From positions 34,217 through 98,216 of the IMG/VR virus record IMGVR_UViG_3300047160_015156: a stretch of DNA of 64,000 nucleotides; one strand, written 5' to 3'. Both the position numbers and the translations under genes were made by a program. This document shows, one piece after another, positions 2,296-52,250 of this stretch. The notes below the pieces were generated by a model. That model made no database searches. It was not told the origin of the DNA and saw only the letters and a program-made list of their open reading frames with translations. Each line of letters starts with the position of its first letter. Position 1 is the first letter of the stretch. The DNA comes from a virus.

Positions 2296-3257
2296 GCATC
2301 GACCGCGTCGACATCGAGAAGGTTCTCAAGCGCCTTGGGATCGAGGCGAAAGCCCACGGGCGGGAATGGGTGGCCCTCTGTCCAAACCGAGAGCACAAGG
2401 ACCGCACGCCGTCGTGGCGAATCCGCGATGAGGTAGGTTCGAGTCGTCACGGGTACCACCACTGTTGGCCATGCGGATTCGGAGGCTCTGTCGTCTCCCT
2501 CATCCAACACGTTCTCCAACTTGAGGACTACGGGGACGCTCGCTCCTGGCTCGAACGCGAAGCCCCGGTGGATCAAAAGCCGATCGAGAGAGTAGAGGTG
2601 CAGATTCGACCTCCCTCCCTTCGATTCCGACTCCCTTCCGGTGTCGTCGAAGCCCCCATCGAGGAGTGGCCCGGACCCCCGCGGGAGTACTTCCTCGACA
2701 CCAGGAAGCTCGAGGCGTGGCAGGTAGATCGTTGGGGGGTGGGATATGCGATCGAGGGACGGCTCAAGGGACGGCTCGTCCTCGTCTCGCGTGACGCCCG
2801 CGGCCGACCCCTCAGGTACACCGCGCGCTCGTTCACGGGAGCTTTGAAGCGGTACCTCGAACCCGAACCCGAGGAGGGGGCGAAGATGAACGCGATGTTC
2901 GGGGAGCAGCATTGGCCGGCGCTCGAGGAGCGTCACACCCTCTTCCTGGTCGAGGGAGCGATCAACGGGCTCGCCCTCGAAGCCGAGCTCCCGGGCATCT
3001 ACTTCGCCGCGACGGCCGGGAGTGAGATGCGGGGTCTCTACGGTGCCAAGTTGGCGACGTGGAAACGGGTATTCACGATGTCGGACCCTGACAAGGCGGG
3101 TGACCGCCTTGGGGAGGAGATCGGGCTCGGGTGCGCGCGGCACACGACCATCCAACGTCTTCGACTCGAGGAAGGCTTCGACCCTGCCAAGATGAGGGAA
3201 AAGCGACCGGGCGAGCTCGGAGCTATCATCCGTTCGTGGCTACGAAAGTCCACGTAG
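2292..3257 (+). CDS. DNA primase (CHC2 zinc finger + TOPRIM)
   Basis: CPNREHKDRTPS...HCWPCG zinc finger; LVEGAING and DPDKAG TOPRIM motifs; GTG 2292 overlaps the helicase stop. Confidence 0.88.
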   Translation: MSIDRVDIEKVLKRLGIEAKAHGREWVALCPNREHKDRTPSWRIRDEVGSSRHGYHHCWPCGFGGSVVSLIQHVLQLEDYGDARSWLEREAPVDQKPIERVEVQIRPPSLRFRLPSGVVEAPIEEWPGPPREYFLDTRKLEAWQVDRWGVGYAIEGRLKGRLVLVSRDARGRPLRYTARSFTGALKRYLEPEPEEGAKMNAMFGEQHWPALEERHTLFLVEGAINGLALEAELPGIYFAATAGSEMRGLYGAKLATWKRVFTMSDPDKAGDRLGEEIGLGCARHTTIQRLRLEEGFDPAKMREKRPGELGAIIRSWLRKST

Positions 3258-3538
3258 TTGAAGCGTCACCGGAATTCGGTCTCCTCGCTCAGATCGATCG
3301 TCCGGCGGCAAAGAAGTCCCTAAAGAGGGCGTACGTGATCGCACGGTGTCATGCTGCTCGCGCGGCATTGTTCCTCGGTCTGACCCGACGTCGTTTCTAC
3401 AAGTGGGTGGTGAGACTGGGGCTCCTACATTGGATGCAGGAGACAACGAAGATCGCGCGGCGGCAGGGGTGGTTTCGTGACCACGTCACACCCGATCGGT
3501 TCGTCAGAAAGTTCACACCTTCTTTGACGCAGTCGTGA
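3131..3538 (+). CDS. small Fis-like HTH protein (true start probably near 3255)
   Basis: HAARAALFLGLTRRRFYKWVVRLGL resembles a Fis-type HTH; start uncertain. Confidence 0.45.
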   Translation: MRAAHDHPTSSTRGRLRPCQDEGKATGRARSYHPFVATKVHVVEASPEFGLLAQIDRPAAKKSLKRAYVIARCHAARAALFLGLTRRRFYKWVVRLGLLHWMQETTKIARRQGWFRDHVTPDRFVRKFTPSLTQS

Positions 3539-3661
3539 CGCATTGCCCCGGTGCTTTTTTCTGTTTTTGTCGTTTCGCTGCGGCATCTCTAGACATAGGA
3601 TCGACAGTGGAGAGTAGCGGGAGCCGCTCCGGTTCCCGAACAAGGAGGTCCTACTACCAGA

Positions 3662-5851: not shown

Positions 5852-5865
5852 GGAGGAGACCGCGG

Positions 5866-8505: not shown

Positions 8506-9173
8506 AGAAGGAGAGTGGTCAGAAACTCGAGGATGTGACGAAGACGATCGAGCTCGAAGGAGCAAAGCTGAACATCGATGTTCAGCAAAGCCGGGAGCTC
8601 CTCGACGCCCTCGAATCCGCCGACTCCCAAACCGACCTCGAAAGCGCCCGCGCCGGCCTCTTCGAATCGGCGAACGCGGCCGAGGAGCGGCCCATCGACC
8701 CCCGCATGGGGAAGCTCGTAGAGCGCACGTTCAAGCCTCTCGATTGGGAGAAGGTTCTCGATCGCTTCGAGGCTTGGATGAGCCTCGGAGACCGGCGCAC
8801 GGAGGAGCAGTTCATCCGCCGCGCGCACGAGGAGGGTCCGGAGATCGTCAAGGACATCTACGACGTCTTCATCCAAGTCCGGTTCGCGCGTGAGGCTTGG
8901 GAGCTCGAGAATCAGCTCATGCTCGGCGGCATGCGTGACGAGGCCCAAAAGGTCCTCGAGCGCGAGAAGGAGCGCAAGCTGAGGACGAAGGCGATCACCA
9001 TCGATGACGTCACCCACAAGGCGGCATCGATGTTCCCCGACGAATGGGCGGCGCAAGAGAAGCGCAGGCTTCAATACAAGCTTATCGAAGATCGCTCCAA
9101 GCATTGTGTGGAGATAGGTACCACACGATGTCGGGTGCTTGATTCGATGATGGCTCGACTCCGCGTGACGTAG
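8493..9173 (+). CDS. helical protein, possibly a UvsY-like recombination mediator
   Basis: Coiled-coil character and position between the polymerase and SSB/RecA; function is inferred. Confidence 0.5.
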   Translation: MARVKKESGQKLEDVTKTIELEGAKLNIDVQQSRELLDALESADSQTDLESARAGLFESANAAEERPIDPRMGKLVERTFKPLDWEKVLDRFEAWMSLGDRRTEEQFIRRAHEEGPEIVKDIYDVFIQVRFAREAWELENQLMLGGMRDEAQKVLEREKERKLRTKAITIDDVTHKAASMFPDEWAAQEKRRLQYKLIEDRSKHCVEIGTTRCRVLDSMMARLRVT

Positions 9174-9215
9174 TCGAACCTTCCCACCCCCCTAGAGAAC
9201 ATCCAAGAGGACGCC

Positions 9216-10424
9216 ATGGCTGAATTCCAGACGGTCGACGACTTTCTCAATCACAAGGGGAACGAACCCTTCGGACTGAAGAACCTGAAAGGGTGGGCCA
9301 AGTCACCTGGCTACCTACACGCGTGGCTTCACACCCGTCAGGTTCCGGTTGCGGTGTGGTTGCATCGGATCCCGGAGAAGGTGATTCGCAAGGACAAGGA
9401 CAACCGCGAGCGCGAGCTCGTGAACGTCTGGGGCCGCCAGCACGTGTGCTGGGAGGACGAGACGATCCTGAAGAAGCAGCGGATGCGGGTCGAGGGACGC
9501 CGCGAGTTCCCTCCCCAGCGCTGCGGGGTCTGTCGCCTGATCGAGAAGGTTCGCGAGCTCATGTTGAGCCACGACCTCGCCGACACGGACGTTCTCTTCA
9601 AGTTCGAGGGCTCCGACAAGCCGGAGGAGAACACCATCATCCATGCCGGCGGTCTCGCGAACGTGTGGAAGCGAGACATGAAGGAAGAGGACAAGGAGCG
9701 TCTCAAGAAGCACGGGATCTACATGGGGAACTCGGGCAACAAGATGGGCGCATGGTCCGAGAACATGCAGCCGAAGCTGAACTACGTCTTCGCCCTCGTG
9801 AATCACGACTCGGTGCAGGACGGTCTCCAGGTCGCCACCCAAACGGAGGTCCTCGGCAAGAAGGTGCAGAACCTCATCAAGGACGAGATCCTGTCCAAGG
9901 ACGACCTCGGAAACCCCTTCCTCCACCCCTACTGCATCCGGTTCCAACACAAGCCGGAGGAGAAGGCGTTCGACGACAAGTACCACGTCCTCCGCATGGA
10001 CAAGAACAAGCTCACACCGGAGATCGAGAAGATCATCCGGAGTGACAAGCCGGACATCCGGCGCTTCACCAAGCGGTACAACCAACGCCAGATGCGGGCG
10101 ACGCTCGAGGCGCACGCGACGGAACTCGGGAAGCGGTTGCCCTGGGATGAGATCTTCAACGTGCCGGGGTACAAGGAGGACGAGGAAGAGACCAAGCCTC
10201 AGGAGACCCGGACCCCAGAGGTTGGACACACCGCGGCCGCGCCTCCCAACACGATCCCCTGCGACGACTGCAAGCATCCGATGCTCGAGACGGAGACGGT
10301 GTGCGGCAAGTGCGGGGCGAAGTACGAGGACGACGGTGCAGCGCCGGCGGCATCTCCTCCCAAAGAGGAATCGTTCGGGGATGCCGTCTACGTCCAAGGC
10401 GGCGACTCGGACGTCCCCTTCTGA
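9216..10424 (+). CDS. putative single-stranded DNA-binding protein
   Basis: Acidic C-terminus ending DSDVPF, Cys/His motifs, located next to recA. Confidence 0.65.
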   Translation: MAEFQTVDDFLNHKGNEPFGLKNLKGWAKSPGYLHAWLHTRQVPVAVWLHRIPEKVIRKDKDNRERELVNVWGRQHVCWEDETILKKQRMRVEGRREFPPQRCGVCRLIEKVRELMLSHDLADTDVLFKFEGSDKPEENTIIHAGGLANVWKRDMKEEDKERLKKHGIYMGNSGNKMGAWSENMQPKLNYVFALVNHDSVQDGLQVATQTEVLGKKVQNLIKDEILSKDDLGNPFLHPYCIRFQHKPEEKAFDDKYHVLRMDKNKLTPEIEKIIRSDKPDIRRFTKRYNQRQMRATLEAHATELGKRLPWDEIFNVPGYKEDEEETKPQETRTPEVGHTAAAPPNTIPCDDCKHPMLETETVCGKCGAKYEDDGAAPAASPPKEESFGDAVYVQGGDSDVPF

Positions 10425-10433
10425 GGTGAGAAC

Positions 10434-11609
10434 ATGGCCAGGACGAAGCTCGAGGCAGGCACCGAAAAGGTGCCGAAGAAACCCCTATCTTCGCTCGCGA
10501 AGCGCTTCGGAGGCCTCGGGTTTCGTCCGGCGTCGCAAGTCCTCACATCCGTGCTCGCAGTACCGACCCGGTTCGTCCAGGTCGACTACGCGACGCGGGT
10601 GTGGGGATGGCCGATCCAACGTGCAGCCGTCATCCATGGCCCCTCCAACGAGGGGAAGACAGCATTCGCGATCGGTCTCTGCGGCTCGTTCATCGAAGCC
10701 GGCGGGATGGCTAAGTACGACGATGCCGAGCGGACGACCACGGGGGACTGGTGCCGGGACCTTCTCGGCAAGGAGGTGGCGGAGAGCGATCGCTTCATCG
10801 CCTCGCGCCCACCCTCCTATGAGAAGGCCGTCGACGAAGCGCGAAGTTTCCATCGCGCAGTCGCGGATGCTCGTCAGGAGGGGGATCTACCAGACCATGC
10901 CTCCGCCGTTCACATCATTGACAGTCTCAGGAAGCTCGTTCCCGAGGACATCTTGGAGAAGATCCGGAAGTCCGGGGCCTCGGGAAAGGAGGGCCACGTC
11001 GACGGTATGGGCGGGCGCGCGGCGCAGATTCGGGCAGCTCTGAACGCCGCTTGGCTCGACGAGCTCATACCGATCCTCGACACGTGTAAGACCGCGTGGG
11101 TCGCGATCGCGAGGGAGTCGGAAGACCCCGAAGCCGATGTCTGGGATCGGAAGTTCGGGAACGACTACAAGGTCCAAGGTGGGAAAGCCATCGTCTACGA
11201 CGCGGCGCTTCGGTGCCGGATCGAGCGCGCGGGTTGGATCTACATCGAGAGAGAAGGGAAGAAGGTGGTAGCGGGGGAGCGACACCGGGTAACGGTCCTG
11301 AAGACGAAGGTGGGTGTGAAGGAAGGGCGGGCAAGCGTCGCCTACTTCCACACCTCGAACGGTCTCCTTTGCCCCGCTGGCTACGACCGCGCCCGCGACG
11401 TCGCCGAGCTCGCGGTCCAGTTCGGAATCGTTTCTCAGGAAAGCTCGGGGACTTCGTGGAAGGGGCAGAAGTGGCGCTCCTTCGATCGGTTTCTCGAGGC
11501 TCTTCACGGAGCCGACGGGGAGCGGGAGACGCTCGAGGCCGAAGTTCGAGCTCAGTTCACCGCCAGGGCGGAGAAGGACGAGGAAGAGGATGGAAACGAC
11601 GAAGCCTAG
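10434..11609 (+). CDS. recA: RecA/UvsX-like recombinase
   Basis: Walker A GPSNEGKT, DAE, Walker B IIDSL, GGKAIVYDAALR, KTKVG. Confidence 0.9.
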   Translation: MARTKLEAGTEKVPKKPLSSLAKRFGGLGFRPASQVLTSVLAVPTRFVQVDYATRVWGWPIQRAAVIHGPSNEGKTAFAIGLCGSFIEAGGMAKYDDAERTTTGDWCRDLLGKEVAESDRFIASRPPSYEKAVDEARSFHRAVADARQEGDLPDHASAVHIIDSLRKLVPEDILEKIRKSGASGKEGHVDGMGGRAAQIRAALNAAWLDELIPILDTCKTAWVAIARESEDPEADVWDRKFGNDYKVQGGKAIVYDAALRCRIERAGWIYIEREGKKVVAGERHRVTVLKTKVGVKEGRASVAYFHTSNGLLCPAGYDRARDVAELAVQFGIVSQESSGTSWKGQKWRSFDRFLEALHGADGERETLEAEVRAQFTARAEKDEEEDGNDEA

Positions 11610-12270
11610 GATTCTGTTGGATTGTGACGGTGTCATGGCCGACTTTTGCGGGGGGTTTCTCGACGCGATCGAGGAGGAGACGGGGGAGCGCTTCGGTCAT
11701 GCCGTGATCACGGAGTGGAACATCACCGACTCGCCCTTCTTCAAGAAGCTGGCGCAGGAACACCGACATCTCAAGGAGCACGTCTGGGCGCGGGTCAACC
11801 GCATCGGGTGGTGCGCGGCGCTGAAGCCGATCGATCGAGCGCAGGAGTGCGTGGAGATTCTGCGAGGGATCGCCGACATCGAGGTAGTGACATCACCCCT
11901 CGACTCGTCGCCGACATGGATGCCGGAACGGAAGGAGTGGCTGAAGCGACACTTCGGCATCCACCCGAATGATGTGCACTTCGTCTCGAAGAAAGAGCGT
12001 GTGATCGGGGACATGCTCCTCGACGACAAGCCCTCTCACTGTCTCTCGTGGCGACGGGAGATGTTGGCGAAGAACATCCCTCACTACAACCCCGACTACC
12101 CACATCCGGCAGTGATCTTCCATCAACCCTACAATGAGATGCCGTCTGATGAGGTGATGCGGGAGACGTGGCGGGCGTGGGGATGGGATGTCGTTGTCGC
12201 CATGGTGGAGCGAATGCTCATTCAACCAGGAGACGCGAAAGAGACGACCACTCTCGAAACCCCGTGGTAG
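11590..12270 (+). CDS. 5'(3')-deoxyribonucleotidase (HAD family)
   Basis: LLDCDGVMADF, VTSP, LLDDKP, FHQPYN. Confidence 0.88.
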   Translation: METTKPRILLDCDGVMADFCGGFLDAIEEETGERFGHAVITEWNITDSPFFKKLAQEHRHLKEHVWARVNRIGWCAALKPIDRAQECVEILRGIADIEVVTSPLDSSPTWMPERKEWLKRHFGIHPNDVHFVSKKERVIGDMLLDDKPSHCLSWRREMLAKNIPHYNPDYPHPAVIFHQPYNEMPSDEVMRETWRAWGWDVVVAMVERMLIQPGDAKETTTLETPW

Positions 12271-12322
12271 CTTGAACCGTGTCGGGGCGAGGAGTCTCGA
12301 CACGGACCGGAGGACGGTGGCG
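12230..12322 (+). promoter_or_regulatory. outlying copy of the early promoter/hairpin/RBS module
   Basis: GAGACG-CGAAA-GAGACG; TAGCTT; hairpin GTGTCGGGGC-GAGGA-GTCTCGACAC; CGGAGGACG RBS. Confidence 0.75.
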
Positions 12323-14323
12323 ATGATCGATGACGTCTTTGGACCCGAGGGGATTCTGTCGAAGCAGTTCGAGGGATATGCCCCGAGAAAGGGGCAGGTC
12401 GACATGGCTCGCGCGGTGGCCGCGGGCATCACCGGCCGACGTCACGTCATCGCCGAAGGTCCCACGGGCACGGGAAAGAGCCTCGCCTATCTCGTACCCG
12501 CGATCGACTGGGCGACGCGACCGCGCGAAAACGAGCCCTCTCGTCACGAGCCACGTCGGGTCATCGTCGTCACCGGGAACATCGCTCTCCAGGAACAGCT
12601 CGTGACGAAGGATCTTCCCCTGCTTCAGGGTCTCCTTCCACGGGCTTTCAACTTCACCCTACAGAAGGGTCGCAACAACTACCTCTGTCACGATGCCGTC
12701 AACAAGTACCTCGCCGGCAACGCGGCCGCTCGCCACGAGCCTCAGATGGAGCGACTTTTGGCGTGGGCTCAGGAGACGAAGACGGGTGACGTTTCCGAGT
12801 TCCCGGAGACCCCCGCACCGATGCTCTGGAAACAACTCAGTGTCAGCTCCGACCAGTGCAAAGGTTCGTCCTGCAAGTACCACGAGCAGTGCTTCGCGGA
12901 GGTCGCTAAACGGAGCATGGTGTCGGCGAACGTGGTGGTGACGAACTACCACCTTTTCTTCGCTCACCTTCTCGTGCGGGCGAAGATGCGGGAGCTCCAG
13001 GCAAAGGGGGCGCCGGTGAATCTGGACATCGTCCTTCCCCCCGCGGGCGTGGTCGTTTTCGACGAAGCCCACAAGGCGGCGGACATTGCTCGCGACTTCC
13101 TCGGTTTCCAGATCTCGAAGGGTTCGATCGAGTGGCTGGTTCGGGGTTTTCGCCACGAGCTCGCGGACGAGATCCGGAGGGCATCGGACGCGTTCTTTGC
13201 CGATCTCCTCGAGCACAAACGCTCGAAGCTCTACAAGTCGCGGCTCAAGGCGGGACAACCGGTCCAGGGTCAAGCGTTGGCGGATCTCCTCCTTCGTGTT
13301 GGCGACGTCTACAAGCACCACGCGAACGCCGCGGCGTGGTCTCAGGATGAGCGTGCCGAGCTCGAGATGAGGGCACGACGGTCCTATACCCTCAGCGACC
13401 AGATTCTCACGGCGATGGCTCCGGAGAAGAACCCACAAGCGGTCTACTTCATCGAGGAGAGTTTCGGGGGAACGGGCTCCAAGGGGCCGGGGAACCTGAC
13501 CAAGTCCTCGTGTGTGCTCAAGAGCAAGCCGATCGAGGTCAACGACTGGCTCGAAAGGGAGCTTTTCAATGAGTATCCGACGGTCGTGGTGACGAGCGCG
13601 ACCTTGTCCACGGGCAACGGTTCGGGCTCGTTCGAGTTCGTGAAGAAAGACATCGGGTTGAAACAGGCGGACGAGATCATCGCGGAATCACCGTTCAAGT
13701 GGCGTGACCAGGTCTTGTTCGTGGTGCCGTCGACGATGGTGGACGCGAAGGATTACATGAACTTTGCCGGCGCAGCGGCCAACCACGTCGCCGACGTCGC
13801 GCGCGCGAGTCGTGGACGCATGCTGGGTCTATTCACCTCGTACAAGGGCATGGACGCGGCCGCGCAGGCTTGCCGCGGGCTCCCTTTCAAGGTCCTCACC
13901 CAGAAGGATGGACCGCGGACGCAGCTCGTTCAGAAGTTCAAGGCGGACGTGAGCTCGTGTCTCCTAGGGTGTGAGAGCTTCTGGGCCGGTGTGGACGTTC
14001 CCGGCGAATCTCTGTCCTGCGTGGTCATCGACCGCCTCCCGTTCCCGACCCCCGATGACCCAATCGTCGACGCCATCGCGGAGAAGGATTCGAAGTGGTT
14101 TTTCAACTACGCGATTCCACGCGCGATCATCCAACTGAAACAGGGGTTCGGGCGTCTCATCCGCACCACCTCGGACCGGGGTGTGGTGGTGTGCTTGGAT
14201 CGACGCATTACGGAATCTTCCTATGGGCGCTCGTTCATCGCCGCGCTCCCGCGTGGGATCGGGTTTTCGAAGAAGATGAAGTCGATCGACCGTTTCTTCT
14301 CGGCGGCATCTTCTCCGGCGTGA
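12323..14323 (+). CDS. DinG/YoaA-family SF2 helicase
   Basis: Q motif RKGQ, GPTGTGKS, KGRNNYLC and Fe-S cysteines, DEAH, SATL, QGFGRLIR. Confidence 0.93.
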   Translation: MIDDVFGPEGILSKQFEGYAPRKGQVDMARAVAAGITGRRHVIAEGPTGTGKSLAYLVPAIDWATRPRENEPSRHEPRRVIVVTGNIALQEQLVTKDLPLLQGLLPRAFNFTLQKGRNNYLCHDAVNKYLAGNAAARHEPQMERLLAWAQETKTGDVSEFPETPAPMLWKQLSVSSDQCKGSSCKYHEQCFAEVAKRSMVSANVVVTNYHLFFAHLLVRAKMRELQAKGAPVNLDIVLPPAGVVVFDEAHKAADIARDFLGFQISKGSIEWLVRGFRHELADEIRRASDAFFADLLEHKRSKLYKSRLKAGQPVQGQALADLLLRVGDVYKHHANAAAWSQDERAELEMRARRSYTLSDQILTAMAPEKNPQAVYFIEESFGGTGSKGPGNLTKSSCVLKSKPIEVNDWLERELFNEYPTVVVTSATLSTGNGSGSFEFVKKDIGLKQADEIIAESPFKWRDQVLFVVPSTMVDAKDYMNFAGAAANHVADVARASRGRMLGLFTSYKGMDAAAQACRGLPFKVLTQKDGPRTQLVQKFKADVSSCLLGCESFWAGVDVPGESLSCVVIDRLPFPTPDDPIVDAIAEKDSKWFFNYAIPRAIIQLKQGFGRLIRTTSDRGVVVCLDRRITESSYGRSFIAALPRGIGFSKKMKSIDRFFSAASSPA

Positions 14324-14802
14324 GCACACGAGAGTCGAGGATTACAGGCCTCCGTTCCGATGGGCACGTGAGGCCGTTTCGTTTGGCGGAGGACATGGGT
14401 ATCGCCCAAGGGACGCTGAAGCGCTGGCTCCATGAGGGTATGCCGGCGGAGCGGATCAACAAGCACGACGTCTGGATCGATCCAACGGCCGCTAAGGCTT
14501 GGATCGAGGAGCGCTTCAAGGGGAAGAAGACGATCGCGTTCGGGCGTCACGCGGTCGTGTACTTCGCCAAGCGCGAGGACGGGAAGATCAAGATCGGGTG
14601 GACCTCGGACGTCATGCGCCGGATCTTCGAGCTCCGGAAGTACATGCGATGCGCCGTGGAGCTCATGGCCTGCTTTCCGGGGAACAAGAGGACGGAAAAC
14701 AGTCTCCATCGGCGTTTCTCCACGGTTCCTCATGAGAGGGAATGGTACGAGCCGGATGCTGTCCTCCTGAGCTTCATCGAACAGATCGGGGGGATGTCAT
14801 GA
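14320..14802 (+). CDS. HTH + GIY-YIG (T5orf172-like) protein
   Basis: VYFAKREDGKIKIGWT...RRI..L...E..LH..F...EWY; N-terminal HTH; GTG 9 nt after GCGGCATC. Confidence 0.75.
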   Translation: MSTRESRITGLRSDGHVRPFRLAEDMGIAQGTLKRWLHEGMPAERINKHDVWIDPTAAKAWIEERFKGKKTIAFGRHAVVYFAKREDGKIKIGWTSDVMRRIFELRKYMRCAVELMACFPGNKRTENSLHRRFSTVPHEREWYEPDAVLLSFIEQIGGMS

Positions 14803-15518
14803 AGGTGACGGTCACATCAGATTGGCACCCTGATCACACCACACACGGTGTGCCTCGATTCAAGGACGTGGCGGAGGCGGTCCATGCCTCTGTGGACTAC
14901 GCGATCGCGGAGGACGCGGACGCTTACGTTTTTGCTGGTGACCTCTGCGACCCCGATGCAGGTTCGGTCGTGTTCCGGTGTGTGGAACTTGCGATCGCGG
15001 CCAGGACGAGGCTCGAGGAGCGAGGAATCTGGTCAATCTGGGTGGCCGGGAATCACGACGTCATCGAAGACGGTTCGGGGGATACGACGTTGTCCCCCCT
15101 TCGAGCTCTCGGTGGACGAACGAAGGTCTTCGAGTCGCCGGGCATTCTACGCATCCTCGATCGAGGAGATCTCACGATCATCGGGTTGCCGTTCACGGCG
15201 ACGACGCGGGGATATGACGTCAAGAAGGCGATCGAAACCCTCGGGACGCAGGCGGAGGGTCCGAAGCATACGCGCATGTGCGTTGCGCACTTGAATATTG
15301 AAGGTGTCGTTCCTGGGGAGGAATCTACGGAGATGCCGAGGGGACGAGAGGTGTTTCTTCCGGTTGCTGAGGCGAAAGCCATAGCGAGACACGTCGTGTG
15401 TGGTCACTACCATCGACAGCAACTGACAGAGGACAAGGTGTGGATCCCGGGTTCGCTCGCGCGGCTCACGTTCGGCGAGGAAGGGAACGTTCCCTCTTTC
15501 CTCTGCATGAGGTTCTGA
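14799..15518 (+). CDS. SbcD/Mre11-like nuclease, catalytic domain
   Basis: SDWH, AGDL, GNHD, AH, GHYH, PGS metallophosphoesterase motifs. Confidence 0.88.
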   Translation: MKVTVTSDWHPDHTTHGVPRFKDVAEAVHASVDYAIAEDADAYVFAGDLCDPDAGSVVFRCVELAIAARTRLEERGIWSIWVAGNHDVIEDGSGDTTLSPLRALGGRTKVFESPGILRILDRGDLTIIGLPFTATTRGYDVKKAIETLGTQAEGPKHTRMCVAHLNIEGVVPGEESTEMPRGREVFLPVAEAKAIARHVVCGHYHRQQLTEDKVWIPGSLARLTFGEEGNVPSFLCMRF

Positions 15519-15919
15519 TGGCAAGGTCGAAGGCGAATCCGCTCGCGGTCGTGACGCAGACGGAGGTGGATGTCATCCGCCTCAAGGATCCGCGCCTGCT
15601 CTTCTCGCCGGCGTTTCGGGAACCTCAGATCGACGTGAACTACCAAGGCGCGATCGTTCGGCTTCAGCCTCCAATCGACGCAACGGATGAGGACATCGCT
15701 CGTGTGACCCGTGCTTGGGCGCAAAGGGGGGTTGCGCGCGTCATCGTTCTCCCAAGGCCCAAGGCTGCACTCGTGCCTGAAAAGGCCGCGCGTGAGGCGC
15801 CTGCGCAGGCTTACGGGGCACGGGAAGCCGTACTCTCGCTCGTGGCCGAATCCAACTCCCGCGATCGCGACGCTCTTCAACGTCTCTGCGAGAAGATCAT
15901 GGGGGAGGCGGGTCTATGA
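15518..15919 (+). CDS. possible detached SbcD C-terminal domain
   Basis: TGATG-coupled ORF between sbcD and sbcC. Confidence 0.5.
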   Translation: MARSKANPLAVVTQTEVDVIRLKDPRLLFSPAFREPQIDVNYQGAIVRLQPPIDATDEDIARVTRAWAQRGVARVIVLPRPKAALVPEKAAREAPAQAYGAREAVLSLVAESNSRDRDALQRLCEKIMGEAGL

Positions 15920-17889
15920 GGTTGTCCTACCTGAAACTGAGGGACTTCGGATGCTTCCGCGGGGAGCATGTCCTCGAGCTCGGGAACAAGGCCTACGGCA
16001 TCTTTGCCCAGCTCCGCGGTGACGCCGAGCGTTCCAACTGGCTTGGGAAGAGCACGCTTTGCAAAAGCGTCTACTTCGCCCTCTACGGAGAGCATGATCA
16101 TCGGTACGATGACGACATCATCTCTCGCGGCGAACCCTCGGGAGAGGTGGAGCTCGGCTTTGATGAGGAGTACATCGTTCGGCGCTCGCGCCAGCGGGGG
16201 AAGCGGACGACCCTCTACTTCGAGGGACCGGAACGAGAGACGGCGATGCAGGACGAGGCCCAGCTCTGGATCGAAAAGGTCCTGGGGATGGGGAAGGAGG
16301 ACTTCCGCGCCACCTGCTACTTCGAGCAGCGACAGATGGCTCGTTTCATTCTCACGGAGCCGTCGACGCGGATGAAGATGGTGTCGGCCTGGTTCCGCCT
16401 CGGCCCGCTCGAGACCTGCGAAGCCCTCGTGAGAAAGCAAGGCACGATGTTCGAGGACGCAGCGATCAAGATCGAAGGTCACTTTGCGGCCATGGACCGG
16501 CGAGCTTGCGAGATTGCGCAGGCGTATGGGTGGGAGGAGCATCCACCCTCTCCTGAGGGGTTGCGAGCGGACCTCGAGCTCGCGATCGCGACGACGGCGA
16601 AGGAGCTCGAGGAGAAGATGGGACGCGTGGGCGCGCTTGAGGACAATCTTGAGAAAAACGCGAAGCTCATGGCGGGGAAGTCCAAGGTCCAGGACTTCGA
16701 CCAGATCGTAACGGACGGGAAGAAGACGAAGGAGGAGCTCGAGAAGTTCAAGCTCCCAGTGCTGAAGACGGCGTGGGAGGAGGCATCGAAGAAGGCGTCG
16801 ACGGCACTTGCGGATCTTCGCGTATGCACCGATGAGGCTCGAAAGAAGTCCGAACTCGCGCGCGGGCAGTTCGATGGCGCTTGCCCCGTGGCCCGCATTC
16901 AGTGTCCTGCCCGAGCGCAGATCAACGAGGACCGGAAGACGAACGTGGAGGTACACGCGGCTGCGGAGGAGGCGAGGAAGAAGAGTGTCGTCGAATACGA
17001 AACCCTGAACGCGGAGGCGACTTCGCTTCGGGGGAACCTGGACATGGGGACCAGGCTAGAGGCCCGACTCCTCGCCCTTAGGGATCAGGCGAAGAAGATG
17101 ACCGCGGACGTCAAGGCGGCGAAGGAAGCGCCCGAGCCGGCGGACCCGGCACATCTTCGAGCTCAACTCGAGCAAGCGCGGTCGGAGCTTCTCGAGGTGA
17201 AGGGGAAGCATGAGCGTTTGAAGGGATGGGCCGCGGAACTCGACGCTGCGGAAGTGACGAAGAAGACGCTCTCGGAGAAGCGAGAGGAGATCGCGCGCGC
17301 TCTCGGTGTCTGCCGCGAAGGCGCGGTCATCTTCGGCAAGGGTGGAGCGCAGCGGCGTGTCGCTGAGTCGGCGCTCACCCAGATTCAGGACATGGCAAAC
17401 GAGGCGCTTCGTGAGTGTGGAGCGAACCTTCGAGTCGACGCGCGGTGGTCGCGAGAGGGCAAGGACATTGCCTCAGCTTGCGATACATGCGGGAATCCCT
17501 TCCCCAAGTCCGCGCGCGTGAAGACGTGCGAGCGTTGCGGCGCCGCTCGAGGGAACAAGCTCGAGAACAAACTCGACATCGTCCTCAGCGATCGATCGGG
17601 CGCGGCGGAGGACCTCGCCGGCGGATTCCTTCAGCTCGCGGCGTCGCGGTGGCTGCGCGAGGAACGGGGGACGTCGTGGTCCATGGCGATGCTGGACGAG
17701 CCTTTCGGTGCCCTGGACGCCGCTCATCGCAAGGGCTTCGGCTCACACCTCGCGACCATGCTTTCTTCAAAGTATGGATTCGACCAATCGTTCGTTGTTG
17801 CTCATCATTCCAGTGTTTTGGATTCACTTCCTGGAAGGATTCTCATCGAAAGTGATGGTGGCTGGTCCGTGCCGAAGGTGATCGCGTAG
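15916..17889 (+). CDS. SbcC/Rad50-like SMC ATPase
   Basis: SNWLGKST Walker A, Q-loop, coiled coil with CPVARIQC hook, RSGA signature, LDEPFGALD, H-loop. Confidence 0.9.
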   Translation: MRLSYLKLRDFGCFRGEHVLELGNKAYGIFAQLRGDAERSNWLGKSTLCKSVYFALYGEHDHRYDDDIISRGEPSGEVELGFDEEYIVRRSRQRGKRTTLYFEGPERETAMQDEAQLWIEKVLGMGKEDFRATCYFEQRQMARFILTEPSTRMKMVSAWFRLGPLETCEALVRKQGTMFEDAAIKIEGHFAAMDRRACEIAQAYGWEEHPPSPEGLRADLELAIATTAKELEEKMGRVGALEDNLEKNAKLMAGKSKVQDFDQIVTDGKKTKEELEKFKLPVLKTAWEEASKKASTALADLRVCTDEARKKSELARGQFDGACPVARIQCPARAQINEDRKTNVEVHAAAEEARKKSVVEYETLNAEATSLRGNLDMGTRLEARLLALRDQAKKMTADVKAAKEAPEPADPAHLRAQLEQARSELLEVKGKHERLKGWAAELDAAEVTKKTLSEKREEIARALGVCREGAVIFGKGGAQRRVAESALTQIQDMANEALRECGANLRVDARWSREGKDIASACDTCGNPFPKSARVKTCERCGAARGNKLENKLDIVLSDRSGAAEDLAGGFLQLAASRWLREERGTSWSMAMLDEPFGALDAAHRKGFGSHLATMLSSKYGFDQSFVVAHHSSVLDSLPGRILIESDGGWSVPKVIA

Positions 17890-25973: not shown

Positions 25974-26500
25974 CGCTCGAGAATCTCCCTGATCCGCCGG
26001 AGTCCGAAGTCCTGCGAAAGATGCCCCTGCAGAAGCCGGGGAAGTCCAAGCAAGACTATGCGACGCCGATGGAGTTCATCCGCGCGGTCGAGGGTCGCTT
26101 CGGGACGCTGCGCCACGACCTTGCCGCACATGAAGGAAACCATCGATGCGAAACGTTTTTCAGCCCGGAGCAGAATTCGTTGGTCCAGCCGTGGGCCCAA
26201 CTGTTCCCGGAGGGGAATCTCTGGCTCAATCCGCCCTACTCGGACATCGGGCCGTGGGCGAAGAAGTGCGCGGAGGAGTCGATCAAGAGAGGCGGACTGA
26301 TCCTCTTCCTCACGCCTGCGAGCATCGGATCGGAGTGGTTCGCGGACCATGTGGAGGGGAAGGCGCTGGTCCTCGGTCTCAGACCACGCCTTTCATTCGA
26401 CGGGAAGAACCCGTACCCGAAGGACTGCATCCTGAGTGTGTACGGGATCGATGTACTCCACCGCCCCCTCCGCGGATTCGAGACGTGGAGGTGGAAGTGA
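25970..26500 (+). CDS. phage N6-adenine methyltransferase (Dam-like)
   Basis: YATP, DLAA, WLNPPYS, RLSF. Confidence 0.85.
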   Translation: MTLENLPDPPESEVLRKMPLQKPGKSKQDYATPMEFIRAVEGRFGTLRHDLAAHEGNHRCETFFSPEQNSLVQPWAQLFPEGNLWLNPPYSDIGPWAKKCAEESIKRGGLILFLTPASIGSEWFADHVEGKALVLGLRPRLSFDGKNPYPKDCILSVYGIDVLHRPLRGFETWRWK

Positions 26501-31499: not shown

Positions 31500-32351
31500 A
31501 TGGGTTTTGGAAAAAAGTCTGCGGAGTCATTCGATTCCAACAAGGTTTACGATCTCGCCGCGAAGGCAATGCGCGAGCGCCGCTCCTCCGTGGTGCGTCT
31601 CGCATTCCGTCTTCACCTTGGCTCGTGTTTGATGAATCACTTCTCGAACAAGGCTATCTGTCAGATGCTCGAGAAGATGGTGGGTATTTCGAAGCCGAAG
31701 GAGCAGAAGGACCTCACGAAGTCCTACCTCGACTCTCACTATCGCAATATCAACGATGACCTCGTTGTTCCTTGTCGCATCATCAAGGCAGCGATCGTCG
31801 AGGGTGCGATCTCGACGGGGAAGGCGGTGTCGAAGGCGGAGTTGAAACGCGATCTTCGCGTCATCGGCTTCACCGCCCCCATCACGCTCCCGAAGGGCGT
31901 CAAGAGCACGACGATGGACGTGCGCTTGGTCCGCAACATGACCGGAGTTCCCGACGTGCGCGCCCGCGCCCTCATTCCCGAGGGCTCCACCGTGGACTTC
32001 GTCGTTCAGTTCCCGACGACACTGTCACCGGACAAGGTCATTGCCGCGCTAGAGGGTGCGGGTCAGTCCATCGGGATCTTCGACTTCCGCCCGGAGAAGG
32101 GCGGTGATCAGGGTACGTTTGAGGTCGAACTCCTCTCCGAGGACAAGATCGACGCTATCGTCCAGTCGTGCATGGCCCCGGAGAAGCCGTATCTGCTTCC
32201 GACCGAGCTCCTCCAGGCCTATAACTCCAACCTCACTGAGAACCAGGAGAAGATGGTGAAGGATCTCAGTGACGCGGAGAAGAAGGCGAAGAGCCTTGTC
32301 GAGCACGTCAACGGTCAGGGGAAGACGAAGCGCTCTCAAGTGGAGGTGTAG
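31500..32351 (+). CDS. solitary Cas7/RAMP-like protein, candidate RNA-guided effector
   Basis: N-terminal strand RLAFRLHLGSCLMNHF, VPCRIIKAAIVEGA helix, VR...PDVRARA thumb, C-terminal Gly-rich loop AGQSIGIFDFRPEKGGDQGTFEV; no cas1/2/3/5/6 in the window. Confidence 0.75.
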   Translation: MGFGKKSAESFDSNKVYDLAAKAMRERRSSVVRLAFRLHLGSCLMNHFSNKAICQMLEKMVGISKPKEQKDLTKSYLDSHYRNINDDLVVPCRIIKAAIVEGAISTGKAVSKAELKRDLRVIGFTAPITLPKGVKSTTMDVRLVRNMTGVPDVRARALIPEGSTVDFVVQFPTTLSPDKVIAALEGAGQSIGIFDFRPEKGGDQGTFEVELLSEDKIDAIVQSCMAPEKPYLLPTELLQAYNSNLTENQEKMVKDLSDAEKKAKSLVEHVNGQGKTKRSQVEV

Positions 32352-32358
32352 GAACTTT

Positions 32359-32405
32359 GGGAGACGCGCGAGGGTCCTAACCCACCCCTCGCGCAAGGTT
32401 CTCCC
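32359..32405 (+). other. leader stem-loop of the pentamer array
   Basis: GGGAGA/TCTCCC outer and GCGCGAGGG/CCCTCGCGC inner inverted repeats. Confidence 0.7.
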
Positions 32406-32413
32406 TCAGTCGA

Positions 32414-32900
32414 GGCATGGCTGGTGAGACATGGAGTGGTTTGCTCAGGCATCGTTCACATCGGTTGGGTACGGCGCGAGTGGTAAGGCAGGCAGCGTAA
32501 GCAAGGGTCCGGTCGTGAAGTGGTCCGGTAAGGTTGGGTAGGTCGTTCAAGGCAGGTGGGGCGCGGTGAGAACTGGCGGGGTCCGGCGGGTCGAGTTCCG
32601 ATCCGGTATGGCAGGCTAGGTTAGGTTTGTCGTGAAGGGGTCCGGTACGGTTGGGTAAGGCAGGCTAGGTATGGCGCGCGACGTCATCGTTGGGTGCGTT
32701 AGGTGCGCCTCGGTAGGTCAAGGCAGGCGCGGTTTGGAATAGGTCCGGTAGTCGAAGGGCACGGTACGTGAAGTCCACGACCGGTGTGGCGAGGCAGGCT
32801 CGGAGGGGCGAATTATTCCCCGGTTCGGCTGCGTAGGGCAAGGACAGGCAACGCAGGCAAGGAACGTTAGGGCAGGGCAAGGCTAGCCCGGCCGGTACGA
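32414..32900 (+). ncRNA. non-coding GGY-NN pentamer array, ~8 units delimited by GGCAGG; putative guide-RNA array
   Basis: GGCAGG at 32487, 32551, 32610, 32659, 32722, 32793 (variant 32852); e.g. GGCA GGCTA GGTTA GGTTT GTCGT GAAGG GGTCC GGTAC GGTTG GGTAA; no + strand ORF in the track. Confidence 0.75.
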
Positions 32901-32915
32901 CAGGAAAGGTGTAAG

Positions 32916-33503
32916 ATGTCAAAGAAAAACGAGAAAACGGAGATCAAGTACGAGGTAAAAGGCTACCTCGCCGAGGATGCGAAAGTCATCGGTGAAGAGC
33001 TTTGCAAGATGGCCAAAGGAGGTGACATCCAAGCCCTGGACAAGCGCGAGGTTTTCGAGACCATACGCGATAATCCTCGTCACCCTCTTCGTCGTTTTTT
33101 CAACTGGGATGAGAGTGAAGCTGCGTACCAGCATTGGATCTCGCAGACGGCGAATCTCATTCGAAGCGTTCGCGTCTTCTACGTTCCCGTGCGTTCCTTC
33201 GAGAAGCAGCTGCCTCCAACCGTGACCAAGCTTGGTCCTGAATACCGACGCGCGAAGCTCGAGAACGGGAACCAGGGCTACGTCAACGTCCAGAATGCGG
33301 CGGCGGCAAAGAACCCGCGTGTTTTCGACTCCATGATCGCACTCCAGGTCAACAGCGTCCGTAACGCCGTCCGTACTCTCACGCAGACGGCCGAGCACAA
33401 GCCGGGGGAGGGGCCTCTTTCGACTCTCATCCGGGAGCTCCAAGTTGCGATCTCGAAGTACGAGGACGCGACCACCACCATCGACGCAGCCGCCGAGGAA
33501 TGA
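32916..33503 (+). CDS. accessory protein of the RAMP/array locus
   Basis: DAKVIGEEL...HPLRRFFNWDESEAAYQHWISQTANLIRSV; RBS AGGAAAGGT at the array end. Confidence 0.7.
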   Translation: MSKKNEKTEIKYEVKGYLAEDAKVIGEELCKMAKGGDIQALDKREVFETIRDNPRHPLRRFFNWDESEAAYQHWISQTANLIRSVRVFYVPVRSFEKQLPPTVTKLGPEYRRAKLENGNQGYVNVQNAAAAKNPRVFDSMIALQVNSVRNAVRTLTQTAEHKPGEGPLSTLIRELQVAISKYEDATTTIDAAAEE

Positions 33504-42912: not shown

Positions 42913-44556
42913 ATGTCCCTTACCGCGCTGATCCAGTTCACGCAGGGCGCGACTGTTGGGCTTCCTGGACAAGCTCTCGTCGGGAGTGACGGGAGCTCTG
43001 TCACTGCTACGGCGATCATCGGCGGCGGTTCGAGCTCGGGTCTCACCTACCGATGGACGTGGGTTGACACTCCGCCGGGCTCTTCGATCCCGGTCGGCGA
43101 GATTGTCGAGGGCGCGGTCTCCTCGGTCTCGTTCACGCCGGACATCCACGGTGACTTCCTCCTAAGGCTCGAGGTCTTCGGGCCGGGTGGTGTCTCGGCC
43201 AAAGACAACCGAGTCTTCCGCGTCATCCGTGTCACCGGTCGTGCGATCCCGGCTTTCAATGCCGACGCCACCTCGCTCAACTTCGGCGGTCAGCTCCGTG
43301 GGTGGGCGCCGGACATGGAGGTTTGGCTCAACTTTCTGGACATGCTCGTCGCCGGAGGTGTCATCCTCTCGGGGTCGGGCGTGCCGAGCTCGGGCCTCGG
43401 GAACGATGGCGACTTCTACATCCGAACCTCGACCTTCGATCTCTACAAGAAGGTGACGGGCGCGTGGGTGCTTCAGACGAGCCTCATCGGTGCCACGGGC
43501 GCAACAGGTCCCGCGGGGGCCACGGGCGCAACTGGTTCCAAAGGAAACACGGGGTCAACGGGATCGACTGGATCTACGGGTGCTACAGGAACTCAGGGTT
43601 CGACGGGAGCAACGGGATCGGGAACTACGGGTGCGACTGGAGCTTCGGGTCAAGGAGCGACCGGTTCTACGGGTGCGGGCACTACGGGTGCCACCGGCGC
43701 CACGGGTTCGGTGGGCGCATCGGGTTCGCCGGGAGGAGCCACGGGTGCCACGGGTTCTTCTGGAGCTACCGGGGCTACGGGAGCGGGAGCTACCGGCGCG
43801 ACCGGCGCCTCCGTTACGGATAACACCTACGACACTTACGCGAATCTTCCGGCGGCGGGTTCCACGGGAAAGCTCTACATCGTCAGCGACGGCGGGCGGA
43901 TGCTTGTCGACACCGGATCGGTGTGGCGCCCGATGATCAACGGCATCCCCGGATATCTGCCCCCGACCGCATCGAACTTCACGGTGCGCTCCCACGGCGG
44001 GATCGCGACGACTCTCACCGACGACCACGGTGCGCTGACCATGACGTTCAGCAACTCCGGCGCCGCGGCCGAGGAAGTCCGAATCGCATCGAAGGCGGCG
44101 CCGGGTACGCCTTACCGCGTCGAGGTGCATCTTCGACCGCTCTACGCCAGTCGCGGGACGCTGCTCGCGGGTATTGGGTTCCGCAACTCCACAAGCGGAA
44201 GCGTGGAGCTTTGGGCACTCGAATCCGCGGCTGGTGCAGTGGCACACGTGGCCAGGCACAGGGCGACCGCGAATAACAACGGCACGAGCCCGACGTACAC
44301 GTTCAGCGCGGAAACCTCTGGCGTCATCGCGCCGGGCCTTGGCGAATCCGTGTGGCTCGCGATCTCCAACGACGCGTCCGGCAACCGAGGGTTCGAGTGG
44401 TCCCCCGACGGCCTCAACTGGACGGTTTGCAGCCAAGTCGCCGTGGCGACGAACGCGTTCATCACGCCGGATGAGATCTGCCTCACCTCGTGGGTGTCGT
44501 CGGGCACCAACGGCGACAAGCAAGGCGCGATCTTCGACTCCTACCGGACGGCCTAA
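42913..44556 (+). CDS. fibre-like structural protein: Ig/PKD-like N-domain, collagen-like repeats, beta-rich C-domain
   Basis: [12 protein letters not shown]...FTPDIHGDF; [14 protein letters not shown]; G-A-T/G-S-T triplets. Confidence 0.75.
43489..43810 (+). repeat. collagen-like Gly-X-Thr/Ser coding repeats
   Basis: [17 protein letters not shown]... in the 42913 ORF. Confidence 0.85.
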
Positions 44557-50311: not shown

Positions 50312-50507
50312 GCTGCAAGCACTTCGTTTGCCCTGACTGCGGGCGGAAGTGCATCCGCATCGAAAAACACGAGGCCCACGCGTGCTTCGTCTGCGATCGC
50401 TGGCTCGAGGGCGTGTGTCCTGACCCCTGGTGCCCGCGCTGTACAACACGTCCCGAGCGCCCTTCGAAGGTTGGCACGTTCGACTGACCGCGGTCCATCC
50501 TCGTGGG

Positions 50508-52250
50508 ATGATGTCCTACAACCCTAACGATCCCGAGCATGTCCAGGCGCTCGGGAAGATCATGCTCCTGAAAGCGGAGAAGGCGCGGCTTCATCCGGCG
50601 GACTTCATCGAATTCGTGATGCGCGAGGAAACGACGCGTCGCCCCGTTCGCTGCGCCCCCCACCAACGCATCGGGTTGGACTTCGTTCTCGCTCACTCGA
50701 GCTCGGTCCTCATCTGGCCCGCGGGCGCGGCGAAAACCTACACCATCGTCGCCCTCATCCTCTGGCTCCTCGGCAAGAATCCGACGAAGCGGTGGGTCAT
50801 CTTCAGCAAGACTCAGGCGCAGTCGAAGAAGATCCTTGCGGCGGTGAAGGACTACATCGAGACCTCGGCGGAGCTCCGCCTCGTGTTCCCGAACCTCAAG
50901 CCGTCCGACCACGACTCTTGGCGCCAGGACCGCATCATCATCGAACGCCCCCGCGGCATCCGAGACGCCTCGGTTCAGGCATGTGGACTCGACCACGCGA
51001 TCCAGGGGTCGCGACTCGACGGCATCATCATCGACGACTGCGTCGATGACGAGAACACCCAGACCATCGACCGGCGGAAGAGCACCATCGACACGATCGA
51101 AGCCGCTCTCTCACGTGTCGAGGCGGGCGGCATGTCGTGTGCCATGAACACGGCCTGGCATCCGGAGGACGCGATTCACTACCTCGCCGACCCCAAGAAA
51201 AAGGGGTGGGCGACGCTGAAGATGCACATCACCGGGGACATCCTCATCGATGATGACGCGCGCCGTCTCGCGGCGGGGATCCCACCTTGGGATCACGAGC
51301 TCCTTCGCCCCAAGTACGAGAGTGGCGCCGACTTGGCATGTCGCATCCTCCGCGCCGGCATCGCTGACCCCAACAACGATGTCCCCCTCTTTCCCGAACG
51401 CTTCTTCTACTCGGAGGTGGAGATGCCGGACGGGACCAAGCGCGGCCCGGCGAAGACCATGGACGAGGCCATCGAGCTCGCGCGCATCGACATCGAAAAC
51501 AAGATCTACAAGTACCGCGCGGCCCCTGGCATGTTCGCGAAGTTCTTCATGGCGAACCCGCGCTCGAACGATGACGCGTGGTGCAAGGACGAGTGGATCG
51601 AGAAGTGCAAGCGCGCGGCGCGCGATCTCGGGTTCTTCGAGCTCGTGGAGCGCACCAGGATGGTCAGTGCCACGGGGCAGCGGCCGCGCGGGAATCCCAC
51701 GTTCACGGGCGTCGACTTGGCCGTGTCACCGAACGAGACCTCGGACGATACGTGCTTCTTCACCTTCGAAGTTCTGCAAGATGGCCGGCGGCGGATCCTC
51801 GACATCGACGTGGGGAAGTTCGATGCCGCGCAGATCATCCGGAAGTGCATTGAGAAGCACGAAAAGTACGACTCGGTGATCCGCATTGAGAGCAACGCGG
51901 CTCAGGACTACATCCGGCAGATCACTCTCCAGGTGGACCAGCTCATCCCCATCAAACCGCACATGACGGGACGGGCGAAGGCGCATCCCGAGCACGGCAT
52001 TCCCGCGGGCTTTGCCGAGATGGAGAACGGGGCATGGCTCATCCCGAACGACCGCTTCGGGAACGTGCACCCGAACGTCCAGCGCTGGATCGACGAATGC
52101 CGATACTACACGCCGGCGAAGCACACCGGTGACTGTCTCATGGCCTGGTACTTCGCCCGCGAGCAAGCGAAGGAATGGGGTCTGTTGGCGCCTCGCAAAG
52201 GCAGCGATCGGAGCGACGTCGGGTTCGCGGCATCATTGATGTCACGGTGA
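50508..52250 (+). CDS. terL: terminase large subunit
   Basis: APHQ, Walker-A-like PAGAAKT, IQGSRLDGIIIDD, NTAWHPED, RNase H GVDLA, IESNAAQ, HTGDCLMA. Confidence 0.9.
   Translation: MMSYNPNDPEHVQALGKIMLLKAEKARLHPADFIEFVMREETTRRPVRCAPHQRIGLDFVLAHSSSVLIWPAGAAKTYTIVALILWLLGKNPTKRWVIFSKTQAQSKKILAAVKDYIETSAELRLVFPNLKPSDHDSWRQDRIIIERPRGIRDASVQACGLDHAIQGSRLDGIIIDDCVDDENTQTIDRRKSTIDTIEAALSRVEAGGMSCAMNTAWHPEDAIHYLADPKKKGWATLKMHITGDILIDDDARRLAAGIPPWDHELLRPKYESGADLACRILRAGIADPNNDVPLFPERFFYSEVEMPDGTKRGPAKTMDEAIELARIDIENKIYKYRAAPGMFAKFFMANPRSNDDAWCKDEWIEKCKRAARDLGFFELVERTRMVSATGQRPRGNPTFTGVDLAVSPNETSDDTCFFTFEVLQDGRRRILDIDVGKFDAAQIIRKCIEKHEKYDSVIRIESNAAQDYIRQITLQVDQLIPIKPHMTGRAKAHPEHGIPAGFAEMENGAWLIPNDRFGNVHPNVQRWIDECRYYTPAKHTGDCLMAWYFAREQAKEWGLLAPRKGSDRSDVGFAASLMSR

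Follow-up and report, generated by a model that had tools for sequence, protein, structure and literature searches.

Viral Interference Programmable Repeat (VIPR) is a CRISPR-like phage system described in 2026 preprints (bioRxiv 10.64898/2026.04.26.720920,.720927 and 10.64898/2026.10.15.759431). Its components are a stand-alone RAMP protein (Vipr), in most cases a single accessory gene (vap), and vrRNAs, which are made of 9-16 YNNGG repeats, at least four to a run, whose GGY is conserved and whose NN is hypervariable (bioRxiv 10.64898/2026.04.26.720920). Each repeat is occupied by one Vipr protomer that sequesters the GGY, and the NN dinucleotides pair with double-stranded DNA with every third target base skipped, i.e., in an NNxNNx pattern (bioRxiv 10.64898/2026.04.26.720920,.720927). 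Competing phages and satellites are thereby silenced at the level of transcription; natural targets were called at an NN identity of at least 80%, no self-targeting was reported, and VIPR was proposed as an ancestor of CRISPR RAMP proteins (2026 VIPR preprints). Cryo-EM of the SUSP1 system placed R138 of the thumb and D177, W178 and R179 of the G-loop in contact with the two guanines and the pyrimidine (2026 VIPR preprints).

In bioRxiv 10.64898/2026.04.26.720920, seven VIPR types are distinguished, and the array architectures include separate vrRNAs with a tail (type II, SUSP1), arrays interspersed with ribozymes, single vrRNAs, and staggered arrays whose vrRNAs overlap. According to the legend of its fig. 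S18, adjacent vrRNAs of staggered arrays overlap by 1 nt.

A pentamer tract in a 98-kb phage genome

We analysed a 64,000-nt stretch of DNA, hereafter the window, which covers positions 34,217 to 98,216 of the IMG/VR virus record IMGVR_UViG_3300047160_015156 (98,216 bp); coordinates are those of the window unless stated otherwise. Two plus-strand genes, at 31500-32351 (283 aa) and 32916-33503 (195 aa), bound a region of 564 nt (32352-32915) without a plus-strand ORF of at least 60 aa, whose base counts are 230 G, 122 C, 106 A and 106 T, with a GC skew of up to +0.43. Within this region, 32414-32910 on the plus strand reads as ~100 GGY-NN pentamer steps; this G-rich, C-poor and ORF-free tract is the candidate vrRNA array. 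In the genome at large, the locus sits between a replication and recombination module and the large terminase gene (50430-52250). The module, within 787-17889, includes a DnaB-like helicase, a DNA polymerase, a UvsX-like recombinase, a 711-aa helicase and an SbcC-like protein; the helicase lies 17 kb from the 283-aa gene and is not adjacent to it. A 547-aa ORF at 42913-44556 carries a collagen triple-helix repeat (Pfam PF01391, E 6.5e-8), and probably encodes a fibre protein.

To gauge the periodicity of the tract, we compared 32414-32900 with 300 dinucleotide-preserving shuffles. The autocorrelation at lag 5, where a first-pass annotation of this DNA had predicted a peak, reached z = +7.5, and lags 10, 15 and 20 gave z = 3.7-4.6. 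At longer lags the peaks drifted to 5n+4 (34, 39, 44, 54 and 59), as expected of a pentamer register that slips by -1 once per unit, through 4-nt steps. When the tract was parsed into pentamers by dynamic programming, with 4- and 6-nt steps penalised, 63 of the 99 steps were GGY pentamers, as compared with 23.9 +/- 3.8 in the shuffles (score z = 14.8). The hexamer GGCAGG occurred seven times, against 1.06 +/- 0.96 (maximum 5) across the 300 dinucleotide shuffles; 7 of the 24 plus-strand copies in the whole window fall within 0.9% of its length.

The composition of the pentamers bore out much of what had been claimed for them in the first-pass annotation, namely that positions 1-3 are mostly GGY and positions 4 and 5 vary freely. 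G occupies position 1 in 84% and position 2 in 76% of the pentamers, a pyrimidine occupies position 3 in 84%, and the entropy of positions 4 and 5 is near its maximum of 2 bits (1.93 and 1.97 bits, respectively, versus 0.84 and 1.15 bits for the two guanines). However, canonical GGY accounts for only some two thirds of the pentamers, the non-GGY remainder (~1/3 of them) including GTCGA, GTTCC and GATCC, and NN strings recur between units, so NN is not fully free.

Across the 98,216-bp record, the tract is the sole strong period-5 signal (0.24, compared with a genome mean of -0.014 and a standard deviation of 0.029), and GGYNN runs were found nowhere else in the genome. Weaker period-5 peaks (0.07-0.09, versus 0.24 at the array) lie at window positions ~25985-26235, 45185 and 63385 (genome positions 60201, 79401 and 97601); they hold no GGYNN run and are therefore probably not solo vrRNAs. 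An Rfam search of the tract matched no family, and a DNA search against GenBank phages gave no match.

Flanking genes and conservation of the module

The protein of the upstream gene (31500-32351, plus strand, 283 aa) matched no Pfam family, and its only PHROG match is unnamed. It has 58 metagenomic homologues, the closest of which share 74% identity with it and lie on long metagenomic contigs. An AlphaFold2 model built from the homologue alignment (pLDDT 87.7) presents a predicted RRM-based RAMP fold with a glycine-rich G-loop and a thumb hairpin, followed by an extra helical region at the C-terminus (residues ~214-275). When this model was searched against the PDB with Foldseek, the top match was Csm3/Cas7 (E 1.7e-7, probability 1.00). 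With VIA-align, the best matches were all Cas7-type RAMP proteins, i.e., Csm3, Cmr4, gRAMP and the Cas7 proteins of types VII and IV (Z from 11.6 down to about 8), the alignment to Csm3 (9g9a_D) reaching Z 11.6 over 154 residues with an rmsd of 3.7.

A more specific assignment came from a family profile run against PDB sequences with hmmsearch. The sole significant chain was 36pp_D, the 'SUSP1 Vipr protein', at E 9.8e-4 with alignment A1 and at E 5.5e-7 with the broader alignment A3; in the latter, profile positions 38-220 matched residues 5-196 of 202. In this profile alignment, which is not a structural superposition, the GGY-contacting residues R138, D177, W178 and R179 of SUSP1 Vipr align to R156, D195, F196 and R197. 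Within the family, R156 is kept in 22 of 22 sequences, D or E at position 195 in 22 of 22, an aromatic residue (W, F or Y) at position 196 in 19 of 22, and R197 in 22 of 22. The family is large, given that the vipr profile retrieved 5,079 cluster representatives at E <= 1e-3 among 1.84 billion proteins. On this profile match, the predicted fold and the conserved residues, we assign the product of the upstream gene to the Vipr family of stand-alone RAMP proteins, and refer to the gene as vipr.

The SUSP1 type II system (PDB 36pp) offers a direct comparison. The locus resembles it in having a homologous Vipr (E 5.5e-7), with the D-aromatic-R motif of the G-loop and the thumb arginine, and in the GGY/NN grammar of its guides. 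SUSP1 Vipr is nonetheless shorter (~200 aa versus 283 aa), and the extra C-terminal helical region belongs to the protein described here.

A wider comparison is with the Cas7/Csm3 backbone proteins of CRISPR types III, VII, IV and I, with which the predicted protein shares its RRM-based RAMP fold, glycine-rich loop and thumb hairpin (Z 7-11.6); a filament along the guide RNA may be inferred for both. Unlike Cas7/Csm3 systems, the locus lacks a CRISPR repeat-spacer array, and neither Cas5 nor Cas6 nor Cas10 was recognised in its vicinity. The guide grammar also differs: class 1 CRISPR guides have a 6-nt period of free sequence, whereas here the period is 5 nt with a conserved GGY, and the guide would be read with gaps. 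Class 1 CRISPR-Cas was rejected as a candidate, there being no identical direct repeats and no cas match (Pfam/PHROG) among the 25 neighbouring and large ORFs scanned.

Downstream of the tract, the 195-aa gene (32916-33503, plus strand) is a candidate vap, i.e., a vipr-accessory gene. Its product is predicted to be mostly helical (model pLDDT 78.9); it had no Pfam match and only a weak match to phrog_15946, and fold searches yielded nothing beyond generic helical hairpins (Z <= 6.7) and non-significant matches.

Single-protein searches of IMG/VR with either flanking protein found no relatives, and a profile search of the same collection found eight loci with a vipr homologue (27-49% identity). 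The vipr homologue is adjoined in each of the eight by a homologue of the 195-aa protein. In seven of them it is followed, 0-700 nt downstream, by a period-5 peak comparable to that of the tract, whereas the eighth contig stops immediately after the partner gene. Among GenBank phages, tblastn detected homologues of ~29% identity in the Gordonia phages Pipp, UmaThurman, Ecliptus and ODay and in Pseudomonas phage LESphi2, and pentamer arrays stand beside the vipr homologue in all three of the GenBank loci checked (Pipp, Ecliptus and LESphi2). Vipr profile patterns yielded no relative in GTDB species genomes. In every related phage locus in which a pentamer array could be looked for, it was present together with the vipr gene and the partner gene.

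Several of these loci have features of their own. In Gordonia phage Pipp, the CDS annotated as 'gene 43, hypothetical protein' (MN234179.1, 33093-33362; L011:3551-3820) coincides with the strongest period-5 GGY-NN signal of the locus and immediately follows the vipr homologue (gene 42); what was annotated here as a protein gene is probably a vrRNA array. In LESphi2 (OQ594955.1; L012:2420-2800), three blocks of pentamers are situated upstream of the vipr homologue, each closed by a short GGGCTG...CAGC hairpin, and their arrangement resembles that of tailed vrRNAs and not a staggered array; this locus adjoins a CI/Cro switch and a sigma factor gene. In L003, a small ribbon-helix-helix-like ORF (INFRVSEDEAARFDRVAEHYGL...; L003:4821-5069), absent from the locus in the window, lies between vipr and the array, and its 3' end overlaps the first pentamers. 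The array of L010 ends in a clear intrinsic terminator (GGGCGACTTCGGTCGCCC and then a T-run; L010:2300-2480).

Two of these loci bear on an alternative explanation, namely that the tract is a double-stranded DNA element to which proteins bind at repeated sites, as they do at iterons, partition centromeres and packaging sites. Elements of this kind typically consist of short repeat arrays, the small ORF of L003 abuts its array, and the L010 array just precedes a gene whose N-terminus recalls a large terminase, which we presume it may encode. However, a 5-bp period with 4-bp slips holds no helical phase, and the terminase gene of the 98-kb phage lies 17 kb from its array. The tract is also strongly asymmetric between strands (G 41%, C 22%), and its G-rich strand is always the coding strand of the flanking genes, here and in the relatives. 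Furthermore, a RAMP protein of RNA-binding type is tied to the array in every locus. We thus consider a DNA element very improbable.

The order of the genes likewise informs a second alternative, in which the tract is a leader that regulates the 195-aa gene, either as a structured or G-quadruplex RNA or as the site of a TRAP-like ring protein that binds a triplet followed by a 2-nt spacer. The tract does end at the ribosome-binding site of the 195-aa gene, and the recurrence of GG at 5-nt intervals would allow two-tier quadruplexes to form. A 5-nt period is likewise seen in TRAP sites, with a conserved triplet, a 2-nt spacer and runs of ~11, but the likeness is one of spacing only: the TRAP triplet is G/UAG as opposed to GGY here, no gene for a TRAP-like protein was found, and the partner conserved beside the array is a RAMP protein. 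Quadruplexes, for their part, do not need the pyrimidine that is conserved at position 3, and no Rfam family matched the tract. Most relatives, moreover, have the order vipr-partner-array (L004, L006, L007, L008 and L010), in contrast to the vipr-array-partner order of the 98-kb phage, L003 and L005; in those five relatives the array follows the partner gene instead of preceding it, and hence is not its leader. A leader of either sort is scarcely credible. The TRAP-like ring site, the G-quadruplex leader, the iterons or pac site, and a Shine-Dalgarno-like sponge were all dropped as candidates given the RAMP fold and the VIPR literature.

The predicted RAMP fold, the profile match to SUSP1 Vipr with its GGY-contacting residues, the GGY/NN grammar and the conserved three-part module together identify the region as a putative VIPR locus. 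We conclude that the tract is very probably the vrRNA (guide-RNA) array of a VIPR system carried by the phage, with the tail-less staggered architecture.

Guide units and their GGCA junctions

The tract parses into about eight units on the plus strand. Unit 0 (32414-32486, 73 nt) is a degenerate first unit, and unit 1 (32487-32550, 64 nt) opens with a GGCA 4-mer and contains an internal 6-mer and an internal 4-mer. Unit 2 (32551-32609, 59 nt) consists of GGCA and 11 pentamers (NN = GG GC GA CT GG CC GG GA CC CC AT), and unit 3 (32610-32658, 49 nt) of GGCA and nine pentamers (NN = TA TA TT GT GG CC AC TG AA). Unit 4 (32659-32721, 63 nt) carries an internal 4-mer, GGTG, at 32693, and unit 5 (32722-32792, 71 nt) carries two internal 6-mers. 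Unit 6 (32793-32851, 59 nt) again consists of GGCA and 11 pentamers (NN = TC GG GA AT CC TC TG AG AA CA AA). Unit 7 (32852-32910), a degenerate last unit that opens with CGCA, runs into the ribosome-binding site of the next gene. The units that begin at 32551, 32610 and 32793 are clean, i.e., free of internal slips.

This layout agrees with the first-pass annotation, which had placed GGCAGG at 32487, 32551, 32610, 32659, 32722 and 32793 and CGCAGG at 32852, and had parsed the units at 32551 and 32793 as the sequence reads, letter for letter; a further GGCAGG, at 32871, was absent from its list. The spacings it gave (64, 59, 49, 63, 71 and 59) are correct, with four of the six equal to 4+5n; 63 and 71 depart from this rule because the units at 32487, 32659 and 32722 carry internal 4- or 6-nt steps. 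The units indeed hold 9-13 pentamers each, as had been proposed, a number encompassed by the published 9-16 pentamers per vrRNA.

Six of the junctions between units consist of a GGCA four-base step followed by GG, and the seventh is CGCA. To place this step in a broader context, we examined ten arrays from distant phages. GGCA accounted for 64 of the 106 four-base steps, the consensus of the junction across the ten arrays was GG(C/T)(A/G)(A/T)-GGCA-GGC(A/G)N-GG, and the spacing from GGCA to GGCA had a median of 58.5 nt and was congruent to 4 mod 5 in 65% of cases. The motif GG(C/T)(A/G)(A/T)-GGCA-GGC is common to the 98-kb phage and to Gordonia phages whose Vipr is less than 30% identical. The earlier suggestion that GGCA is a register site is thereby strengthened: it is the dominant register slip in these arrays, and as such fits staggered ones.

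Relative to the described architectures, SUSP1 vrRNAs are separate, ~100 nt long, and end in a conserved pseudoknot tail of ~40 nt, whereas the units here are contiguous, span 49-73 nt, and have no tail or significant fold. RNA folding of the units detected no conserved hairpin tail, and they folded no better than shuffles (z -0.5 to -1.7), as expected of a protein-bound single strand. A SUSP1-like type II vrRNA is excluded, the units being contiguous, 49-73 nt long and devoid of a conserved tail. The staggered arrays described in bioRxiv 10.64898/2026.04.26.720920 are similar to the locus in their stand-alone Vipr RAMP gene, adjacent accessory gene (here a candidate one), GGY/NN pentamers and carriage by phages. 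Their guides abut with a 1-nt overlap, the counterpart of which here appears to be the four-base step of GGCA-GGC. The six GGCA-GG steps at the junctions fit such a 1-nt overlap of neighbouring guides, and hence an array of the staggered type.

Some of the sequence is repeated between units. GGTCC-GGTA recurs in five of them, and the 3' parts of units 1 and 3 (32512-32563 and 32629-32680) are identical at 39 of 52 positions (75%). This near-duplication and the recurrent GGTCC-GGTA suggest either growth of the array through duplication of units or a constant 3' segment common to the units.

Upstream of the array, just 3' of the vipr stop codon, lies a plus-strand stem-loop (32359-32405, core GCGCGAGGG / CCCTCGCGC). 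Its predicted energy is -32.5 kcal/mol, with a z of only -1.3 relative to shuffles, which is not significant. As a candidate terminator it has no T-run, and a terminator scan made no call.

The irregular units raise the possibility of decay, i.e., that the tract is of VIPR origin and that most units have become non-functional through loss of GGY and frame slips. The array is more degenerate than those of its relatives: GGY makes up 64% of its steps, versus 85% (82 of 97 steps) in L006, whose grammar is near-perfect, and units 1, 4 and 5 carry internal 4- or 6-nt steps. Against this stand an intact vipr gene that keeps all of its key residues and a boundary motif retained at six junctions, and a largely dead array is accordingly improbable. 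Given the non-GGY steps and the internal slips in three units, some units of the putative VIPR array may nevertheless have decayed, or may be read differently.

Target searches and reading of the guides

In search of targets, we converted clean runs into NNxNNx patterns (the 1-nt-skip rule), following the methods of the VIPR preprints. Exact patterns of the runs at 32555 and 32797 (22 informative bases each) had no target in viral or metagenome contigs, nor did that of run 32555 in genome contigs or that of run 32614 (18 informative bases) in viral contigs. When up to three mismatches were allowed, runs 32555 and 32797 had no match in five related phage records, and two clean L006 guides, searched as 1-nt-skip patterns, had no target in viral contigs. 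These missing targets are uninformative, since the large collections were searched for exact patterns only and published targets were called at 80% identity or above.

We also compared 33 guides from eight arrays with the 98-kb genome and eight loci. The best identities ranged from 64 to 88%, and 32 of the 33 guides scored no better than shuffled ones. The remaining one, a 14-unit guide of L007, matched G000 at 21 of 28 positions (75%), above all 60 of its shuffles, but below the published 80% and uncorrected for the 33 guides tried. In the phage's own genome, no self-target rose above the shuffled-guide null, in agreement with the lack of self-targeting in the VIPR paper. Read as codons, the guides gave degenerate peptides, such as G-A-[DE]-L-G-P-G-[DE]-P-P-[IM].

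The proposal, made from the DNA alone, that each unit is one guide with a non-contiguous NN code coincides with the published VIPR mechanism and gains support by analogy, through membership of the family. By extension from the SUSP1 and P. fulva work, the array would be transcribed together with the flanking plus-strand genes, and one Vipr protomer would bind each pentamer of the RNA, sequestering its GGY and presenting its NN. The resulting filament would then read double-stranded DNA, each NN pairing with two bases and every third base being skipped (NNxNNx), and this reading would repress transcription of a competing mobile element or another target.

At each junction, one pentamer is shortened to four bases, corresponding to a 1-nt overlap of adjacent guides. 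We infer that this -1 slip of the register could end one Vipr filament and start the next, and could thereby set the boundaries of the guides. That the GGCA step itself is the guide delimiter in tail-less staggered arrays, with the -1 slip stopping one filament and nucleating another, is a tentative proposal, which we regard as possible but on balance doubtful.

VIPR is a very recent class, known from 2026 preprints only, of RNA-guided DNA binding in which the guide is read with gaps. The locus leaves the picture of this class unchanged; it adds one clearly bounded example of the tail-less staggered array, a less studied architecture, from a phage genome that is complete at 98 kb. The incremental novelty lies in the cross-phage consensus of the GGCA unit junction in tail-less arrays, which bears on how guides are delimited without a tail or a ribozyme. 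If the GGCA step does act as the delimiter, the boundaries of the guides, and perhaps the trimming of the RNA, would be set by the phasing of the protein on the RNA, with no dedicated handle, ribozyme or Cas6-like nuclease setting them.
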